Below the pieces are notes generated by a model. The model was not told the DNA's origin, did not search any database, and was given only the letters and a program-made list of their open reading frames with translations. Shown in pieces: positions 2,573 to 56,394 of a DNA stretch of 64,000 bases (its first letter is position 1; each line of letters starts with the position of its first letter). The DNA is from Ginglymostoma cirratum. Its lineage: Eukaryota. The position numbers were made by a program, and so were the translations under genes. The stretch spans positions 3,868,183 through 3,932,182 of the forward strand of contig JAHRHZ010000074.1 of the NCBI GenBank assembly GCA_024137785.1, read 5' to 3'.

Positions 2573-2893
2573 AGAATTCCTACAGTGTGGAATCAGGCCA
2601 TTTGGCCCATTGAGTCCACACTGCCCCTCTGAACTGCATCCCTAGTCCATCCCTGTAACTCATTTCCCATGGCTAATCCACCTAGTCTGCACATCCCAGG
2701 ACACTGTGGGCAATTTAGCATGGCCAACCTACCTAACCTGTTCACCTTTGGACTGAGGCAGGAAATTGGAGCACCCAGAGGAAACCCACACAGACATGGG
2801 GAGAATATGCAGACTTCGCACAGGCAGCTGGCTGAGACTGAAACCGAACCTAGGCCCCTGGTGCTGTTACACAGCAGTGCTAACCACTGACCC
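2573..2893 (-). mobile_element. tRNA-derived V-SINE (HE1-like)
   Basis: Reverse-complement homolog of 3093-3367 and 26851-27208 (gaggaaacccacacagacatggggagaatatgcagact). Confidence 0.8.
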
Positions 2894-3092
2894 ACTGGCC
2901 ATCCACTTTGGCCTGGATTTAATGCAGCTCACCAATTTAGAAACCTTGGCTGCCAAGCCCACTTATTTATGGGAGAAGCCCAGTTTCAGTTTCCAAGTAG
3001 CAGAAAATTCATCCACCCCGCATAGCATCCCTGATTTGGGGGTGCTAGAGGGACTGATGTGCTGTTCCTGAACTAGGTCTAGGAGCTAGGCA

Positions 3093-3367
3093 ACTGAGCA
3101 GCATGGTGGTTCAGTGATCAGCACTGCTGCCTCACAGTGCCAGGGACCGAGTTTCACCCCAGCCTTCGTTGACTGTCTGTGTGGAGTTTGCACATTCTCC
3201 CTGTGTCGGTGTGGGTTTCCTTCTACAGTGCAAAGATCTGCAGGTTGGGTGGTTTGGCTATGGGAAATACAGGAATGGGTAGGGGGTGAGTCTGGGTGGG
3301 ATGCTCTTGGGAGAGTTGGTGTGGACTTGTTGGGCCAAATGGCCTGTTTCCACACTGTAGGAATTCT
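3093..3367 (+). mobile_element. tRNA-derived V-SINE (HE1-like), internally deleted
   Basis: gcatggtggttcagtgatcagcactgctgcctcacagtgccagggacc head; gactgtctgtgtggagtttgcacattctccc core; tail ccacactgtaggaattct. Confidence 0.8.
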
Positions 3368-3780
3368 GTAAAAGGAAAACATGACTGCAAATAATGGAAT
3401 GCATAACACACCTTCTGGAAAAGGTTTGGTTGTTTCCCATTTTCATATGCAACCTGAGCTATCCCTTATTATCTGTCAGATTAAATTATGCACCAGTGTT
3501 GACTAAAATCTGTTTCGATGTGACTTCAGAATATTGCAGATAGGATTTAATAGAAAGCCAGGAGGAAACATTTCTTGATGAAACCATGCTGCTGAACAGT
3601 ACTGGCGAACGTCTTAGTTTGACCTGTTTTGAGCAATTAGTGTTGATGTGCCTTTTAGTTTTGAATTCATTATGTATTACCTGCATACATGATGCTCATG
3701 ACTGGAAAAAAAATCAGATTTTCTCCTGTTTTACACAACTATATTTACATTTGTAATGCCCATTTTATTTTAATACTTAG

Positions 3781-24220: not shown

Positions 24221-24606
24221 TAAGCATGCAAGGCATATCTAAATAATAAGGCATAACACAAGATGCTTACTCCAGCACAATAACATTGGTACATGAGTCA
24301 ATGTTACATGATCAGACTTTCAAGATTGCATTCCATCAGAGTTGGTAATCCCTGTTATTAAACCGTTGAGTAGTTCTATTTCACCTTAATTGTGTAATTT
24401 CAGTTCTCATTTCATTGTGGCAGAAATATGGGAAGAAGACTTAGCATTGTTGTGTAGTATAGTTTTCTGTTGAATGAAAACTTTTCCTGTACACCTGATA
24501 CTTGTAGTCAAGATAATAGATACAAAAATTTTGACTGGAGCACAAATAAAAAACTACCGTGGTATATAATTGATTGATATTGTAAATGAAGTATTTTGTT
24601 TTATAG

Positions 24607-24728
24607 ATTTATTTGTCATGGGCTACAAACTGGACAGTTATACAAGTTTCGAGTTAGGGCTGTAAATGCAGCCGGGCTTAGTCAATTCTCACATGAGTCT
24701 GAGGCTTTGGAAGTCAAAGCTGCTTTAG
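24607..24728 (+). CDS. MYOM1: MYOM1 exon: FN3 My6, second half
   Basis: tatag|A TTT...TTA G|gtaggt; FICHGLQTGQLYKFRVRAVNAAGLSQFSHESEALEVKAAL (not in ORF track). Confidence 0.95.
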
Positions 24729-26800: not shown

Positions 26801-26850
26801 AGTCGAGCTTGATGAAAAACAGACTGCTAATTTGTTAAATGTTTTATGTT

Positions 26851-27208
26851 TGGGGTGGCATGGTGGTTGATGGTTAGCTCTTCTGCCTCACAGTGCCAGG
26901 AACCCAACTTTGATTCCAGCCTTGGGTGACTGTCTGTGTGGAGTTTGCACATTCTCTCTGTGTATGCCTTCATTTCTTCCGGGTGCTCAGGGTTCCTCCC
27001 ACTATCCAAAGACGTGCAGGTTAGGTGGATTGGCCATTGCCTCATAGACTCCAGGTCATAGACTCCTGCCTCATAGGTAGGCTAGGTGGATTAGCCATGG
27101 GAAATGCAGGGTTACGCGGTTAAGGATGGGGGTTTGGGGCTAGGTGAGATGCTCTTTGGAGGGTGGGCACAGACTCAAATGGCCTCTATCTGCACTCTAG
27201 GGATTCTA
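26851..27208 (+). mobile_element. tRNA-derived V-SINE (HE1-like)
   Basis: Same head and core as 3093-3367; small internal duplication of tcatagactcc. Confidence 0.8.
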
Positions 27209-27232: not shown

Positions 27233-27360
27233 TTTCTGAAGAAGGGTCTCGACCCGAAACGTCAGCTTTCCTGCTCCTCTGATGCTGCTTGGCCTGCTGT
27301 GTTCATCCAGCTCCACACCGTGTTATCTCAGATTCTCCAGCATCAGCAGTTCCTACTATC
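27233..27360 (+). mobile_element. Short Penelope-derived insertion with minimal hammerhead core
   Basis: CTGAAGA-A-GGGTC-TC-GACCC-GAAAC-GTC at 27236-27263; TCAGTTTCAG at 27223-27232 and 27361-27370. Confidence 0.8.
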
Positions 27361-28822
27361 TCAGTTTCAGACTGTCTGTTTTTAGCTCCTTTTGTGTATG
27401 GTCACATTTCCATTAGACTCCATGAGTCTACAGATATGCTTCCTGTACCTTTCATGTCTCTTTTTTGTTTCTTTTCTCTTGTTACTGTCTCAGCTACTCT
27501 GATGCTTACTTCTGGGGTTCTTTATTTGTTACTTTCTTCCTGTGTCTCTAAAGAGTAATCATTTCTCTGGGTGTTTATCCCCCTGTAATTGTCTTCCTCA
27601 TACCTGGTGCTTTCTCTTGTTATTCCAGTGATCTCATTGAAATGTATTCTTTTGCTTTCACTGAGCACAATTGATGCCTTTTCCTCTGATGATCTGTCAC
27701 AGTAGGACCTGGAAGGGTGATCAAGCAAGAGATTGCAGTGCAGCTAGTGTTAGGGTTTTGTGAAGAGCAATGAGAAGGACCATGGAAAGTGTGGGATGTT
27801 GGTGGACAGGAAAGTGGGGAGGTATTATCAAAACCACTTATTGGCCTTTTGTCAGGTTGTACTCCTGTGAAGTACATTGTGATGTTTTCCTAGATTAAAG
27901 TAAGTTGCTGTTGCTACTGCATACATAATTTTCATGTCAGCCAAAGGATGTCAGAAGATGAATTACACAAGTGTAGGTGGATCAATAGCAGTTATTAACT
28001 AGAGCGGATGTATTTTTAATCCATCCAGGTTGTTAATTTTGCTTGGGAAATAGAGGGAGGTACTAGGTAGTGAATTGAATACTTTAGAGGTTAGTTTGCA
28101 GCTTATTTTTTGTCAATTTGTAATGATGTGTTGAAATTTATTTTTACAGGTTTGTAATGGGATGAGTGGGAAACTGAGTCAATGGGTGCAGAGAATTGTT
28201 TTGTTATGGTGCGTTCGGGCAGAATTCCTTTTTAAGAGAAAGTTTTTGTGCAATAGGTTTAGTGAAGCATGAAAGTAAAAAAAAAAATACTTCAGAAAGG
28301 GAAAAACTCAACCATTTGTCCAATGAGGATTAAATAAATTGACAGGCATTCAAAGAATTAAGTTGAATGCTATTCATATGAGGATTATGAACTGGAATTA
28401 TGATATTTACATAACATGACATAAACCATTTTATTTTATGGAGAAAAGACATATTATACAGGTTCTCATAATTTTAAAACAATTATTCAAAGCCTCTAAA
28501 TGTCATCAGATGTATCAAAATAAACAATACTCTGTTTAACAAGTGCAAAAATTGCCTTTGTTAAAGTTTTATACTCTTTTGCTTCTGAATGTGTTGGTAG
28601 TCAGCGCATTGTCTGTTATAGGAACAAATGCATCTTACTCATTGTTTTGGGCTTTGCTTGTTGCTATGTTAAACTTTGAGCAAAACATTCTTGTACCTTT
28701 TTCCTTGTTTTTTGTATGGCGTGTTTGTCTTCATTTCTTCATCCTTGAAAAAATGAAGTATATCTTTTTGCACAAACTGATCTATTCATGAATGCCTGAT
28801 TAATTACTTTATTTAACTCTAG

Positions 28823-29314
28823 GAGGAGGAGTGCCTCATGGTGTGTTTCCTGAACAAAGTGGTAACATTGATGGACTAACAGACAGCAGTGCACGCTGGG
28901 ATGGCAAGCATGAGACATCTCAGCTCGCACGTGACACTTTACTAAGTTGTGATGCTGTGCTTAACAGACACCTGCTACCCACTGGCTATTATAACTTGCC
29001 ACGCATAGTACCAGATACACCAAAGGAGGTAAATGCAGAACGGACAAGCAAGTCTAATCTCAGAAGCCTAAAGGTACAAGATATGTACGAGGAGGGCCCA
29101 AAGAATAAAGATAAGCATGACAAGGGCCTAAAGATGCAAGACATGCATGAAAAGGGCCCAAAAATTCAAGAAAAACATGAGGGTCCAGAGATAGAAGATA
29201 AACATGACAAGGGCCCAAAGATACAAGACATGTACAAGAAGGGTTCTAAGGTAGAAGACAAACATGAGATGGGGCCTAAAATACAAGATACGCACGAGAA
29301 GAAGGAAAAAATAG
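28823..29314 (+). CDS. MYOM1: MYOM1 EH (embryonic heart) alternative exon, 492 nt / 164 codons, with internal tandem repeats
   Basis: tctag|GA GGA GGA GTG...ATA G|gtgaga; phase 1-1, open frame, between My6 and My7. It begins GGGVPHGVFPEQSGNIDGLTDS, resembling the mammalian EH start GGGVSPDVCP...GGLTAS. Confidence 0.85.
29071..29307 (+). repeat. Coding minisatellite: eight units of 30 nt (one 27 nt), consensus K-I-Q/E-D-K/M-H-E/D-K-G-P
   Basis: KVQDMYEEGP, KNKDKHDKGL, KMQDMHEKGP, KIQEKHE-GP, EIEDKHDKGP, KIQDMYKKGS, KVEDKHEMGP, KIQDTHEKKE. Confidence 0.93.
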
Positions 29315-31029
29315 GTGAGAAATCAGGAAAACAATATTGAATTTAAACACAAAGAGGTGGAATCATATTCTGGGAAGAATTGATTTGGTCTCAATGAATG
29401 TGGTTTATATATTTGCTTAATTGTTAGGGAGATTGATGAATGATAACAAGAAGTTTATAACATAACAACTCACACATCAAAGGAAGTCCCTACACATTTT
29501 ACAAACCTGTTGAGTAGGAAGTGGAAGCAGATTGTAGGCATCTATGAAATGTATTTTAAGGAGATGTGGAGACATGTTAGTGAACTGTTTTTAGAGAGCA
29601 TTTCAAGGAGCAAGGGCCTAACAGGAGAGAGATTGTACTGTGACGACCAACTGGAATGTGAATCACAATCTGTTTTCTGACCAGTGGGGACTAAAGGGAA
29701 AGCATACAACTAGAGAAAACTACAAAAATTCTGAAAATAAGATCAGAATTTTGACAGTTGGGACTGGGAGAGGTAAGTGGTAGTTGCAATGAAGCTTGGG
29801 AAGGAAATGAGTGAAATCAGAATTATCCTTATAGCTGTTTTATTCAAAATGACACTGTGTTTATTGCTATGACACTCAGTCTCATAAGTTCGCCATTGAC
29901 CAGATAAGCCAGAAAGACAGTTGGGCAGATTATTCTTTTGCTCAATGCTATGAGGCAATTACTTCTGGGTATTTCCAGTTACAGCAAACTGCAGTTGACA
30001 TCCTCATCAACTAACTTTTTTTTACATGTCATCTCTTTCAGAATTCAGTTAAAAGCAATAAAGAAACATTTAGTATATTATCCTTTGGATAATGGGCAAC
30101 ACTAGCAAAGCAGTATTTATTGTCCATGCTGAATTGCCCTAGGAAAATAAAGTTGGTCTCAAAATGTATGAGGTAACAAATATGTAAACTGTGAGGAGGA
30201 CTGTAGAAGATTTAAGAAAAGTACAAACAGATTGACAGGTTGAATAAACAGGTGTACGTGAACAACTAATTATGAAGTATTACACTGAGATACATAAAAA
30301 GGAATAGGAACATGTACTTTAATGCTAATACACAATCAAATGTGAATGAATAGAACTTCTCACGTATTATTGCAAGTGGATAAAAACATTGGAAAAGGCG
30401 ATTGTATTTGACTTTTAAAGATCGGAGCTTGGCAGACACTAGCAAAACGACATTTGCAAAAATTAAATATTAGCTCATAATCAGAATTAAAGTAGCATGT
30501 CCAATCTTGGGAATCCCATTATAGAACGTGATAATGCATCACACTATTTTTGATTAATAAACAAATTGCTGCTTTCTAATCATTGAAAATAATTGTGCTT
30601 AAAGAGGAAATGCTAATAATTAATTGTACCTCTTTAACCTAATGACATGGATAAGTATGATTCATCTCCAGGTAAAGAGTCTGTGCAATTAGTACAGTTC
30701 AATAAGGAAATTTAAGAATTTTTTTTTTGATTATGCATCTGAATTCTGACCATAGCTGAAATTGCAAAGTGAAAGACTATATATGCTTTGGCCAAATCAG
30801 TTCAGCTGCTCATCTTAGGGACAAATCCAAATTCAGTTTGCATCATCGTCATCATCCAATTCTGGTCTATCAGCACGCCTGTGGTCACTAATAGCTCTGA
30901 ATCTATTTAATATGTTCATCCTTGTTTTCAAACCTCCCATGGCCCTGCCAATTCCTTTTTGTGTAACTTGCTCCAGCTATGTGATCTTCTAAGAACTTTG
31001 TATCCCTCTATTTAATTTTTCTAATCAAC

Positions 31030-33643: not shown

Positions 33644-33840
33644 CTCCTCCTGCACCACCTTATGCAATTACAGTTCTTGAAAGTGTCCATGACTCTATGG
33701 TGTTGGGATGGAAACAGCCTAAATTCCAAGGTGGTTCTGATATTACTGGCTATTTTGTGGATTATCGTGAAGTTATTGATGGTATTCCTGGAAAATGGAA
33801 AGAAGCCCATATCAAAGCTATAACTGAGCGGGCATATAGA
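33644..33840 (+). CDS. MYOM1: MYOM1 exon: FN3 My7, first half
   Basis: aacag|CT CCT...TAT AGA|gtaagt; APPAPPYAITVLESVHDSMVLGWKQPKFQGGSDITGYFVDYREVIDGIPGKWKEA. Confidence 0.95.
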
Positions 33841-34129
33841 GTAAGTGAAACAAGACCTTTTTCCCTGAACGTGTTTTTAGAAACTGCAAGGGTTCAATAG
33901 TTCAATATCCTCCTCAAGTGTTAATCTAAATATAGGAATAAATATATATGCTATGTTATATACTATGTGCACATTTACACATCACTACTATTAAAATAAG
34001 TTTTATTTTGTTCACCATCATTTCAGGTCTCCTTTCTCTCATTCCATATGCAGCATTACTATAAGGATGTTACCTACATCCTGGGACGACTCATATAAAT
34101 TTCAATAGTAATAGATTGCTATTGGAAAA

Positions 34130-40099: not shown

Positions 40100-42450
40100 T
40101 AGTTTCCAGTATTACATCTCTTCTCTTGTGTTCAGCACCTCCAACTGATAAAGAAAAGCATCCAACAGAGCTTCCATACTACCTTATATATCTGTCTTGC
40201 CATTTCCCATGAATGTACACCCCAAGGTCTCTCATTTTCTCTACTCCTTTTGATATCATGCAGTTTATTGCATATTCTTTGCTTTGTCTTCCTCAAGTGC
40301 ATAAATCTCATACCCTTCCAGTGTGAATTCCTATTACAAATTTTCTACCCATTCGACCAAGCTATTGATATCTTCATGCAGTTAACAGCCACCCTCTTCA
40401 ATATCAATGACCCAGCCAATTTCCCAATCGTGACTCTCAGATGTAAGACTAAATTATTAATATATACCACATCAGCAAGGGTTGCAAAACTGAGCCCTGT
40501 GGAACACCACTGAAAGCCACTTTCCATTGGCAACAGCATGCTTTGCTGTTTTATTACCCATTGTTTCCAGTTATTGAGCCAATTTTGGATCCAACTCATC
40601 ACATTCACCTGTATTCCATAGACTTTAATGTCTCTGGCATGTGGTCTTGTCAGATTGTTACATCAAACCTATGTAAATAACATCCACTGCACAATGTTCA
40701 TCAATCTTCCTTGTTACTTCCTCAAAAAATTCAATTAAGGTTTAAGACACAACTTGCCTTAAACAAAATCTGACTATCTGACTATCCAGAATTTAGAATA
40801 TCCTTTATTGTCACGTGTATTCAATATAAAATACAATGAAAAGTGTGTACCATCACCCACACATAGGCACCATTTACATTAACTTAGAATACAATTTACA
40901 AAAAGATAACTTGAAGAGAGTCTAACTTTTCCTTCTCCACTGCTGCAGCATGCCACCACCAGAGTCCTGTTCCGGGCTTCCCAGCCCACACCAGGCTGCC
41001 GATTAATCCATGGCTTTCCAAGACATGGTTAATCTTATTTTTCAATAATGATTCCAGTAATTTTGCCCATTCATTGCACACTTTTTGAAAAATGATACAA
41101 TGTTTGCAAATCACCTGTACCTAGTGAGGATTGGAAAACTATCCTCTGAGGATCCATTATTTAACAGCCTGAGATAAAATTCTTTCTTCCCTGGTGATTT
41201 ACCCATCTTCAAGGAGGTCAATCCCTCCACTACTTCCCTCCTCATTATGATTATTTTATCTAATATTTCACACTCTTCCTCTTTAAGTAGAATGTCGGTA
41301 TCACCCTCTCAACTTTGTGAAGGCAGAAAGAAAATGCTCATTTAGAACCCTGCCCACATCTTCTGCATCCACATACTCATTATCAGGTACATCTCTAATA
41401 GGTTAAACCTTTTACTTAGCCATCCTTTTGTTCTTAATGTACTGATGAACCATCTTTGGAATATATTTAATTTTGCTGGCCAGTACTTTTTTAATATTCT
41501 CTCTTTGCTTTCTTGATTTCCTCTTTCATTCTACCCTTTGGTTTCTACATTCCTCTACATTTCCTGAAGTATTACTTTTTCGTCATAAACTTTACATTTC
41601 TACTTTATCTTACCCTGTATGCTTCTGAATAATCAAGGGACTCCAGATTTGGCAGTGCCAAATCTTTTTCTCTGTGGGGACATGTCGACAATGTGGATGT
41701 CTACATTGTACTCATAGAATCTCACTTTTCATCTCTCAGCTTTGCGAAATTTGCCTTCACCCAATTTAGAATTTTTCCTCCTATCTATCTTTGTTCCTTT
41801 CCATATGATGCTAAATCCAACTGTATTATGATCACTATCTCCAAAATGATCAACTACTGCTGCTACATCCACACATGCAAATTCATTTCCAAAGATTAAA
41901 TCTAGAAGGAAGCCCTCTCTGACAAGGCTAATCAAAAATAAAGTCATGGACCATAGGGCTGCTGTCTCAAGAGAGAGAAATGACTGATGGTGGTTTAACC
42001 TGAGGATGATCACACCTCAGACGAAGGGAGAGGTTGAGAAGGAGGGATATTCATGGTAACCTCAGTCAGTGCAGGAATGCTTGCTAGCTAAAACAAGTTG
42101 CCTTAAATGCTGTTCAAGAATTTTGTGCCTTGCACACTGTTTGTATCCCAATTGAACATTTGAGTATTTGAAGTCCCCAACAATTATCACCCCTTTGATT
42201 TTGCATTCAGAAGTTTGTCTATATATTTGCTCCTCTAACTCTCTCCCTCTATTCGTGAGCCTATAGTACACACCTAGCCGTTTGGCTGCCTTTATCTTTC
42301 TTACTGAGCTCAACCCATATTGCCTCATTGATATTTCATGAGGATGTCATCCGTCCTTGTATCTGTGATTGATATTTCAACCAATAATGCTATATCTCCA
42401 CCTTTTTATCCCCTTCTTTAATCCTATATCCAGGGATGTTGATCCGGCAT
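40100..42450 (-). mobile_element. Long decayed CR1 ORF2 (APE endonuclease plus RT), interrupted by later insertions
   Basis: LGVYYR and VIIVGDF (42062..42328), DLIFGN...FGDSDHN (41729..42013), WIQNWLNNWKQWV...YINNL (40345..40608). Confidence 0.82.
41945..42080 (-). mobile_element. SINE (family of 25820-26025) nested in CR1
   Basis: ggaccatagggctgct...gaggttgagaagg...ggtaacctca. Confidence 0.6.
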
Positions 42451-52730: not shown

Positions 52731-54101
52731 CTAATTTAGTTATTTTGTATGTTTTAGCTGAGGCAATAAGAATGGGCAGGTTATTTTATAGTGGATATAA
52801 TTGTTCAACTCTATCATCTCCTCATCTAACAAATATATTTGCAACTTTGAACATGTTTAGTATGGAGCTGGGCTCTCACATTAGCTCCTCAACAATAGAA
52901 AATACATAGAAATTTCAACAGTGAGACCGAATAATTTTCAGCTTTGGGTACCCTGTCTGATTTCTCCCAATTTTTCTGACCTGGTGTATTTAAGTGAATT
53001 ACACTGTCCCTAGCAATGTCAACCTGATAGCTCAGAACAAACCTGTAATCAAATCCATTACGCTCTGGTCTGTACAATTATCAAAATATGGAAAGTCAAT
53101 ACGACCCATCGCATGTTCATTTTTAAAGGGAATTCATTTTTTCGATTTTAGCTCATTCCACAATATATTTGAGAGTGTCTAGTTAATAAGCATTTTATTC
53201 ACAAGTAGTTCAGTGAGATCTTGCATTTACCTTATTAGTGATCTGATTATGGATCTTTACCACACTGACGCTGGGAGGTTCTTGAAGGAATGTCACAGTG
53301 AATAGAGATTCAGCGGCAACTCGGTTTAGAGGCTAAATCTTATGTTTTCTCGGCTGAGTCTGAGTTATATTGGGTTTTTTTGAAAGGTTTCTAGTTGAAG
53401 GACTCAGCAGGTTTTCTCACCGTACATTAATTACATGTGCAGTCCCTGTGACATTGCTCACATCCAATTTCCACGACATCTTACCACACATCATTCCTGA
53501 AAAACTCGCCATGCAGCAGACATCCTGGAATACACCAGCATCTCTTATGCCTATTATCATCTTTAAAACCCATTGAGCAACCAGACAAGAACTGTTAGGC
53601 TGGAAGTGCCCAGCACGGTTGTTGCGATTTGCCCCAGAAGTGGCAGATGAGAGATCACCTCCCTACCTTTGTGGCTACGTTCCCAGAGATCCTGCTTAAT
53701 GTCCTCTTCACACAGGGCCAGCAGTGGATGTCACAAGTTCAGACTTGTGGCTGGTGTCATGGAACCCAAGTACGTTGATACCAGATTTCCAACATGGAAG
53801 CTGTTTGGAGCAAGTGGTAAGCTGAATTGCCAGGTGCTCTCTCTGGTTTCATTATCGAGTGTTCCCAATGTCTGGCTTGTTTGGAGAATTTGATAAGATG
53901 AGAGACTGATTATTAATGAGGTAGGTTGTGCCATTAACAAGGCATTTAACAAATGTCAATCCCCATCAGTTAGCATCATGCTGCTGCCAAGTGAGAATCT
54001 TAGCATGCCTCTTGTGAAAAGCATAAAAGATAGATGGGCTCCTGATGTCAAGACAGGCCTCACTGGACTTGTCAGCCTGATTCTGCTAGACATTTCACCA
54101 T

Positions 54102-55020
54102 CCAATGTATCATTCTCCGCCACTTCTGCCGCCTACAATCTGACCCCACAACCAAAGATATATTTCCCTCCCCACCCCAATTTGCCTTTTGTAGGGACCG
54201 GTCTCTCTGCGACTCTCTCGTCTGCTCCACTCTCCCCACCAGCCCCACCACCCCCTGCACCTTTCCCTGCAACCGCAGGAAGTGCTACACCTGTCCCTAC
54301 ACCTCCCCCGTCACCTCCATTCAAGGCACTAATCAAACCTTTCACATCAGACAGAAGCTCACCAGCACATCCGTCAATGTGACCTATTGTATCCGCTGCT
54401 CACGATCTGGCCTCCTCTACATTGGTGAGACCAAGCAGAGGCTCGGAGACTGCTTTGTAAAGCATCTGTGCTCTGTTTGTGACAAATGACACCACCTTCC
54501 GGTCGCAAAACATTTCAACTCCCCCTCCCACTCCCTGGGCGATATGTCCATCCTGGGCCTCCACCAGTGTCTCAATGACGCCACCCGAAAACTGGAAGAG
54601 CAGCACCTCATATTCCGTCTCAGGAGCCTACAGCCTGATGGCCTAAATGTGGACTTTACCGGTTTTAAAATGTCTCCAGCCCTGGCGTCATCCCATGACT
54701 AACCCTCTCTCTCATCCCCGCCTACTTGACCTGACTCAACTCATCGATCTTCTCTCCCACCTATCTGTCCCTCCCGCCTCACTGCTCAATCCCCACCACT
54801 GCCTACCTGTACTCACCTATCACCATCCCAACTACCTTCCCCAGCTCTACCCCTCCCCTCTCTATTTATTTTTGAGCTCCCTTTACCCTCTCCCATTTCT
54901 GAAGAAGGGTCCCAACCCGAAACGTCAACTTTCCTGCTCCTCTGATGCTCCCTGGCCTGCTGTGTTCCTCGAGCTCCACACTGTGTTATCTCTGACTCCA
55001 GCATTGGCAGTTCTTACTCA
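54102..55020 (+). mobile_element. 5'-truncated Penelope-like retroelement (Cys-rich linker, GIY-YIG endonuclease, terminus with hammerhead)
   Basis: PCNRRKCYTCP...NVTYCIRCSRSGLLYIGETKQRLGDCFVKH...HFNSPSH...KLEEQHLIFRLRSLQPDGLN with one in-frame stop; core CTGAAGA-A-GGGT-CCCA-ACCC-GAAAC-GTC at 54899-54926. Confidence 0.9.
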
Positions 55021-56394
55021 CACCATAGCCCACATTTCTCAGATCCCTATTAGATTCCATCCTAAGTGTCACCTGAGATTTTCACCAGTCTTCTGGGGAC
55101 ACTATATCAGCTGTTTAGTAGGATCTCAAGAAAGTTCCCAGAATTAATCTTGCAGCTGTAAGAACAAAACGATGGACGCACACATGGTTGATTGTGATAG
55201 GCTGGCAGGAAAACCACAGGCAGTACACATACTCAAAATATCAGTTATTACCAGCTACCCCTCATCCAGTAAATACCAATCAAATTTCTTTCCAGCAATA
55301 GCTGCAGGCTGAAAAATGATTGCCAACCCTGTTATTCAAACCAGAAGACTCTGTTACAAGTCCACTTATTTTTAGAAAGTTATATCGTAGCTTCGCTACT
55401 CAGAAGTATTACAGAAGAAGAGAGTCAGTAAATAATTCTGATATGAATTAATACTGTGGCATTTTGAAAATGGATTAATGTTTTTAATTGTGATTTGTCA
55501 CATAAGATAATCAGGCTAGGATTCAGTGAAATCCATTTTAGTTGAGACTAATGGTTTAAACTCAGGTCAATTTAAAGTCATGCTATTTTGAAGATGATAA
55601 GCAGGTGGAGAATGACTGTGGTGAGCTTTTGGCATCTGCTGTGGTGTAACCTGGTCGGCAAAACAAAGCTGGCTCTTTCAAAGAGTCACCTCAGCTTGAA
55701 CAATTGTGCAATCAACTGCACAGGTCCAAGTGGATCACTAATTTGTAAAATTTCCTTTTGCTCCCTAGCAACCCCATATGGCAGGAATGTAAAAGGGGCT
55801 CTTGCATTCATTGTTCTTGATTTAAAATGAAATATGCTGAATAATATCTCAGTCAGTTGATTGCCTTTCTAAGACACTGACCATGGGTAGAGATATGTGC
55901 TTCAAAACTGGACAGAAGAGTATCATTAATCCTGATACTCCAGGAGCCAGAATTCCATTTGCAACGAATGGAAAGTGGTTTGTTCTCAAAAGCCTGCAGC
56001 ATGGTCCATATTGAAAACCATGTTGTAAAAGATGATAGCAGGAACATCTCATGTGTGTGCTGGTGGTATAGAGCGTAGGCAGATGGTGACGTCAATCATA
56101 TGGAAGTTCCTGACTTGCCACGTTTGACCTTCGCACTGTAGTTAATTCTTCTATTAGCCACACAGACCTGAATTCAAGGAACAGACACCCTCGACCCCCA
56201 CAAATCAAACAGTAAATGCTACAGAGATCACAATTTAACACCTAATTAGGTGATTTTGGCTATTTTCAGCTGCAGAATTAGTGGAAAAATTGTCTTGTTG
56301 GAGAAGATGATTGAAGCGTTTTTTAAAAATCAGATAGGGGTGGTGCTAGAATTTTGGAAGGTGCTGTGTGATATGGAAAGGCCACTGAGCACAC

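Follow-up and report, generated by a model that had tools for sequence, protein, structure and literature searches.

An in-frame decapeptide repeat array in the EH exon of Ginglymostoma cirratum myomesin-1, a likely extension of the My6-My7 spring

The window, the whole 64,000-nucleotide stretch of Ginglymostoma cirratum DNA analysed here, contains most of the exons of one myomesin-1 gene on the + strand, recognized by tblastn with protein P0002 and by Pfam fn3 and Ig matches. The exon for the second half of FN3 domain My6 (24605..24728, +; start approximate) ends ...GCTGCTTTAG/gt in phase 1 and matches P0002 at 100% over residues 694-735 in tblastn; that for the first half of FN3 domain My7 (33644..33843, +; end approximate) is placed by tblastn, its acceptor and a Pfam fn3 match (E=4.4e-06). 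Between the My6 exon end (24728) and the My7 exon start (33644) lies an exon of 492 nt or 164 codons that begins and ends in phase 1 (28823..29314, +; acceptor ...TCTAG/, donor ATAG/GTGAGA) and whose translation is 98% identical to that of whale shark myomesin-1 P0157, the closest named protein. Passages of PMC8900313, PMC4142248 and PMC7023976 put the EH segment of myomesin-1 between My6 and My7, which is where this exon lies. Its first ~58 codons (28823..28998, +) form a core that can be aligned across jawed vertebrates, including turtle, bird, lemur, coelacanth and gar, and that makes it homologous to the tetrapod EH; an HMMER scan also matched the bird-type fragment P0177 at E=5.6e-07. The host gene, the EH exon and its coding status are thus all as originally predicted. 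EH-myomesin itself is already known, and the proteins discussed here are already in public gene models.

The 3' half of the exon is a decapeptide array (29071..29307, +) of eight in-frame units of 30 nt, starting at 29071, 29101, 29131, 29161, 29188, 29218, 29248 and 29278, with the consensus K-[VI]-Q-D-[MK]-H-E-K-G-P. As predicted, the only length change is one whole codon (unit 4 has 27 nt) and there are no stops, the frame being open from 28804 to 29340. Tandem Repeats Finder, the suggested check, reports period 30, 8.0 copies and a score of 141; the units are 57-80% identical to one another in DNA, and the best autocorrelation of the array, 0.64, was reached in 0 of 2000 codon shuffles (shuffle maximum 0.52). 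The 79 residues include 19 Lys, 11 Glu, 9 Asp, 6 His, 7 Gly and 5 Pro, so that the predicted richness in Lys, Glu and Asp (39/79 charged, net -1) and the periodic His (position 6 of 6/8 units) and Gly-Pro (5/8 units) are all present. The proposed 60-nt higher-order duplication, with DM- and DK-type units in rough alternation, is not borne out: position 5 reads M K M K K M K T, and the lag-2 mean identity of 0.711 has p=0.10 among all 40320 unit orders. Tandem Repeats Finder scores an 87-nt period higher than a 60-nt one (219 against 166), and the lag-3 mean identity is 0.708 (p=0.15, all unit orders); by unit-order permutation neither a 60-nt nor an 87/90-nt structure is significant, and both were rejected. 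In the orthologous ray arrays the best-scoring period is 20 amino acids, a weak hint that the array may once have been a dimer.

Origins and relatives of the array were sought in several ways. A transposon or other multi-copy origin was rejected, the EH exon matching once in the species' own 4.4-Gb genome in a search that skips simple repeats. A full HMMER scan returned 18 proteins, comprising myomesin fragments and others; the eight non-myomesin matches inspected are decapeptide arrays in unrelated proteins (e.g. R3H- and LINES-domain proteins), and they were rejected as distant homologues. That unrelated proteins also carry decapeptide arrays indicates that such repeats arise readily. The Pfam family PF25296, "Decapeptide repeat region", is a similar look-alike in unrelated proteins, with a 10-residue period, Gly-Pro/Ser-Lys and acidic residues; the EH segment does not match it at E<=1, and the likeness is one of composition.

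The distal donor (TAG/GTGAGA, 29315..29320, +) closes the long form of the exon, and two in-frame donors lie upstream of the array. One follows the first 18 nt (ATG/GTGTGT, 28841..28846, +) and gives an array-free 6-residue form, present in gene models and consistent with the start of a contig from run X1; the second, a candidate after 39 nt (GTG/GTAACA, 28862..28867, +), gives a 13-residue form in the models of one species (P0125/P0126/P0128). The resulting 18-nt micro-form (28823-28840) is absent from the passages of the EH reviews consulted, and these likewise make no mention of internal donors. Transcripts reading past the distal donor would stop at 29338-29340. The residues G-E follow the array both here and in the skate-like P0171, and a truncated read-through isoform was considered and rejected: its tail is 8 residues in the window versus 27 in P0171 and is not conserved.

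Read mapping to 28650-29500 covered 4 of the 24 listed runs (X1, X19, X21 and X22). Run X1 comes from a relative and is taken as RNA by guess. One of its contigs, of 447 nt, consists of nine letters of the My6 exon end followed by 28820-29314 with a 57-nt skip, whose place, 29151-29209, is free to shift by 17 nt. The first 30 letters of this contig end at 28840, its last letter is 29314, and a contig reading into the intron overlaps it by 30 nt; we infer that k=31 branches at the donors 28840/28841 and 29314/29315 would produce such breaks. If X1 is indeed RNA, this fits splicing of the array into a transcript of the relative through the distal donor. The intron-reading contig (1738 nt, depth 18.9) runs from the EH end (29285-29457 and beyond) into the downstream intron, against depths of 31.5 for the exon and 5.1 for an upstream-intron piece; it could represent intron retention, intronic polyadenylation, or pre-mRNA or DNA, and AATAAA occurs downstream of the EH exon at 30057, 30146 and 30243. 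RNA from the species itself (X21) contributes two reads, one pair, at ~28820-29063 with one read partly off the stretch; the pair passes both internal donors and, covering the 5' half of the exon only, stops short of the array. The RNA run X22 has 0 reads for 28650-29500. Run X19, DNA of a close relative that may belong to the species of a named record and was not counted as independent, aligns over all of this stretch, ungapped and with 12 differences, and hence has the same eight units.

Among the matches listed for 23 named chondrichthyan species, the long form is found in 13, the 6-residue form in 11 (the chimaera included) and the 13-residue form in one, and 10 of the 23 have skip or short forms only; these counts rest on predicted gene models and cover 15 of the 26 members of one cluster. 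Together with the 492-nt length, the phase 1-1 boundaries and the spliced X1 contig, the gene models of relatives, which skip the exon or use its short or long form, identify an alternatively spliced in-frame cassette. Use of a donor upstream of 29071 had been named as evidence against the predicted array; such a donor does exist and does exclude the array, but the long distal form exists beside it, and the objection therefore holds by half. Since an internal donor that leaves out the array (the 18-nt one) is widespread, EH length is switched chiefly by splicing and not by copy number, and donor choice (0, 6, 13 or 164 inserted residues) is the larger lever on EH length. Bird (89/109) and teleost records contain further EH length variants that resemble internal-donor products.

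The suggested comparison of unit number across sharks, rays and chimaera gives 5.5-8 units in elasmobranchs and one in the chimaera. The array is present in each of the 12 elasmobranch species for which a long EH is recorded, following an 83-residue 5' part: whale shark has 8 units (164 codons), catshark 7 (153 codons), two bamboo/epaulette sharks 6 (145 codons), five rays 6 (143 codons) and three skates 5.5 (138 codons). It spans 54-80 residues in the long-form shark, ray and skate records. The first unit and the last three align in all long-form elasmobranchs and the middle units vary; about 57 nt of units 4-5 (29161..29217, +) are missing in the bamboo/epaulette sharks, as a 19-residue gap in P0002/P0159, and in run X1. 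Catshark has copies like units 4 and 5 of the window, so a loss in bamboo sharks would be as likely as a gain here. The EH exon of the chimaera Callorhinchus milii (P0149) has a single shark-type unit, at the exon end, and reaches 144 codons through 50 residues inserted cleanly within its core (EH residues ~19-78); the inserted piece consists of five extra tandem copies of a different decapeptide seeded by the core motif L-T-E-x-x-A-x-W-D-G. The same exon thus carries 10-residue tandem copies in both lineages, but from another seed and in another place.

Outside the cartilaginous fishes, the EH exon has 95-111 codons in gar, sturgeon, reedfish, coelacanth and most tetrapod records, and mostly 130-175 codons in teleosts (outliers 216 and 260) without the shark repeat; eel and catfish records (P0069, P0029, P0070) have their own unrelated 8- and 12-residue repeats and up to 260 codons. 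Human EH (MYOM1 exon 17a; EH-myomesin, skelemin) shares with that of the shark the gene, the My6-My7 position, the single phase-1 cassette exon, the homologous 5' core, predicted disorder and near-zero net charge, but has 96 residues versus 164, the 3' half of the shark exon being the decapeptide array. We scored 122 EH segments (the best 120 of 2041 matches plus cluster members, including isoform duplicates and one titin stretch); a set made of the best 120 of 2041 is biased toward close scores. The array is absent from all non-chondrichthyan EH segments examined, and the expectation that mammalian EH has no such repeat holds among the 34 most repetitive of the 122. Length in this set spans 74-259 and is thus not tightly held. 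The arrival of the chimaera at 144 codons with another decapeptide, next to 143 in rays, suggests that length matters. Net charge is about zero in all EH segments measured; His residues number 5-10 in chondrichthyan EH versus 1-3 in the tetrapod examples.

The first 58 residues of the exon are 83-91% identical to other elasmobranchs and 100% to whale shark, and the array is 56-72% identical to those of catshark, rays and skate, against 84-90% for the FN3 flanks. Leaving out changes beside the gap and the contig ends, there are 15 non-synonymous and 4 synonymous differences from X1, near the ~3:1 ratio of sites, and 3 of each from X19. In X1 the exon has 23 changed letters out of 438, and the intron-reading piece 13 out of 173; the exon diverges at roughly the pace of the intron beside it, and this fits neutrality too. 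Among 73 scored units, which are not independent and from which mis-split units and those outside 9-11 residues were dropped, Asp4 is present in 71, Lys/Arg1 in 68, Gly9 in 56 and His6 in 55, the other 18 having Tyr (11), Asn (6) or Gln (1) at position 6. The three length changes smaller than a unit (3, 6 and 15 nt) are all whole codons. Frameshifts or stops in orthologous arrays had been proposed as a refutation. The indels seen keep the frame, but protein records are selected for open frames, and slippage by whole units preserves the frame in any case. The substitution pattern indicates that the sequence of the array is weakly constrained while its frame and composition persist. The core (28823-28998) is as conserved between sharks and rays as the adjacent FN3 domains; on this alignment a spring that is supposed to lack features could contain a binding motif or be under constraint from splicing.

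EH is described as a disordered elastic insert in passages of PMC8900313, PMC7023976, PMC4142248 and PMC11070111, the last citing AFM, EM and CD work (Schoenauer 2005). The array has an FCR of 0.49, an NCPR of -0.01 and a kappa of 0.10. A well-mixed strong polyampholyte of this kind is expected to be an expanded coil in the Das-Pappu framework. An AlphaFold model (28 sequences) has a mean pLDDT of 53.7, a pTM of 0.10, no residue above 70 and no secondary structure, and the segment matches no Pfam family at E<=1 and no PDB entry; a folded repeat (solenoid) was rejected on these results. The predicted disordered polyampholyte fits the composition and the featureless model, but it is PEVK-like in physics only: Pro, Glu, Val and Lys make up 47% of the array and 34% of the whole EH segment, compared with ~70% for titin PEVK in the part of PMC12241362 consulted. 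Titin PEVK is likewise a disordered, charged, repeat-built and splice-adjusted sarcomeric spring, but it is spread over many small exons, whereas the array has 10-residue units in one exon and Pro at 5 of 79 positions; no sequence relationship to PEVK repeats was found with Pfam (E<=1) or PDB.

A worm-like chain with assumed values of 0.38 nm per residue and a persistence length of 0.4 nm predicts, for 164 residues, a contour length of 62 nm, a stiffness of 0.25 pN/nm and an extension of 27 nm at 10 pN, and for 96 residues (the human length) 36 nm, 0.42 pN/nm and 16 nm. On this model the array likely softens the long EH by ~40% relative to a human-length segment. The idea that copy number tunes compliance survives in part, unit number varying from 5.5 to 8 between species, but 8 versus 6 units changes the predicted stiffness by only ~13% (0.28 pN/nm at 143 residues). 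As the main tuner copy number fails: it is stable between close relatives (X19), while splicing spans 0-164 residues.

The explanation we consider likely is that an old in-frame 30-nt coding minisatellite supplies additional disordered chain, balanced in charge, by which the entropic spring between My6 and My7 becomes longer and softer. A one-unit seed would have been present in the chondrichthyan ancestor, in an EH of ~94 codons, and slippage would have multiplied it to 6-8 units ahead of the split between sharks and rays. The reading frame, the balance of charge, the hydrophilicity and an approximate length would have been kept, but not the exact sequence. Donor choice would switch the spring (skip, 6, 13 or 164 residues), unit number being merely a slow evolutionary trim. 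Use in embryonic and adult heart and in slow fibres is assumed by analogy with mammals. The main rival is that the minisatellite is selectively neutral, having expanded through slippage in a disordered exon that tolerates it, so that its length has no selected role; the near-neutral substitutions, the look-alike arrays in R3H- and LINES-domain proteins, the different repeats that eel (8 aa) and catfish (12 aa) have in EH and the wide EH length range all suit it, and we regard it as possible, if clearly the less probable account. It does not lead one to expect that the array is retained, at 54-80 residues, in each long-form shark, ray and skate record, that net charge stays near zero across the measured segments, or that the chimaera converged on a ray-like total length with another seed, though the last is one coincidence. 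The elasmobranch and chimaera expansions are two events, too few to prove selection. The best reading is of a loosely constrained disordered extension, the interesting part being the parallel expansion.

Three other roles are improbable to differing degrees. The earlier suggestion of a spring made sensitive to pH or metals by its periodic His (D-x-H-E/D) is unlikely to hold. His is indeed present in 55/73 scored units, and the excess over tetrapod EH noted above agrees with it, but a sensor would be expected to have conserved, clustered ligands, and here the His residues are 9-10 residues apart with no clustered motif, are kept in 3/6 units in bamboo sharks, and give way to Tyr, Asn or Gln elsewhere, the CAT to TAT change being one transition. 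Lowering the pH from 7.4 to 6.5 would take the predicted net charge from roughly -0.6 up to +1.3 (assumed pKa 6.3), that is ~2 of 39 charges, too little to expect a switch; free cytosolic Zn2+ is also very low. More doubtful still is that the array acts mainly in RNA, as a purine-rich enhancer and RBFOX-site block steering the choice between proximal and distal donors: competing donors are present, the array is 73% purine, and it has 3 GAAGA (0.34 expected per 250 nt) and 2 GCATG, one being TGCATG, but these counts are small and the purine richness follows from the Lys, Glu and Asp codons. Least probable is that the long form is minor or unproductive and that the skip and 6-residue forms do the work. 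Its absence from 10 of the 23 species, among the matches listed, and the depth of the X1 intron-reading contig (18.9 beside 31.5 for the exon) would accord with this, but the open frame and distal donor are conserved in sharks, rays, skates and chimaera, the EH core is preserved as FN3 domains are, and 13 species have full-length models.

A broader proposal may be made, which we put forward tentatively and think rather doubtful: that EH length has been selected in fishes, from an ancestral ~95-110 residues to ~140-165 reached independently in elasmobranchs and chimaeras by two decapeptides and otherwise in teleosts, with a conserved 6-residue micro-form in cartilaginous fishes, and that a three-step (none/short/long) switch of M-band compliance could underlie the unusual mixture that cartilaginous fishes have, of red muscle with a simple lattice and white muscle with a superlattice. 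Sharks and rays have that mixture, and myomesin isoforms were speculated to set the lattice, in the part of PMC4280514 consulted; a passage of PMC12241362 describes a parallel case, the independent lengthening of the titin I-band in cartilaginous fish. EH has been linked to eccentric contraction and dilated cardiomyopathy (passages of PMC3032906), and EH-myomesin is re-expressed in the latter, with its structural role listed as open in passages of PMC8900313 and PMC7023976. Cartilaginous fishes offer a natural series of EH lengths (6, 13 and 138-164 residues) on an identical core, and this series and the two independent expansions make testable whether only length is important; the ~58-residue core, conserved like folded domains, may do more than act as a spring. 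Among the literature matches listed, from a search with subscription journals outside its scope, none dealt with repeats in the EH of chondrichthyans or with the 6-residue form, and older primary papers may hold cross-species alignments.

Elsewhere in the window, the open reading frame translations of intronic stretches at ~53900-55150, 26830-27081, 2600-3470, 27280-27560 and 40100-40700 resemble the usual shark LINE/SINE remnants. In the gene set, LPIN2 proteins P0122 and P0127 cluster with myomesin-1 through the fused gene model P0134, a database artefact that reflects neighbouring genes.
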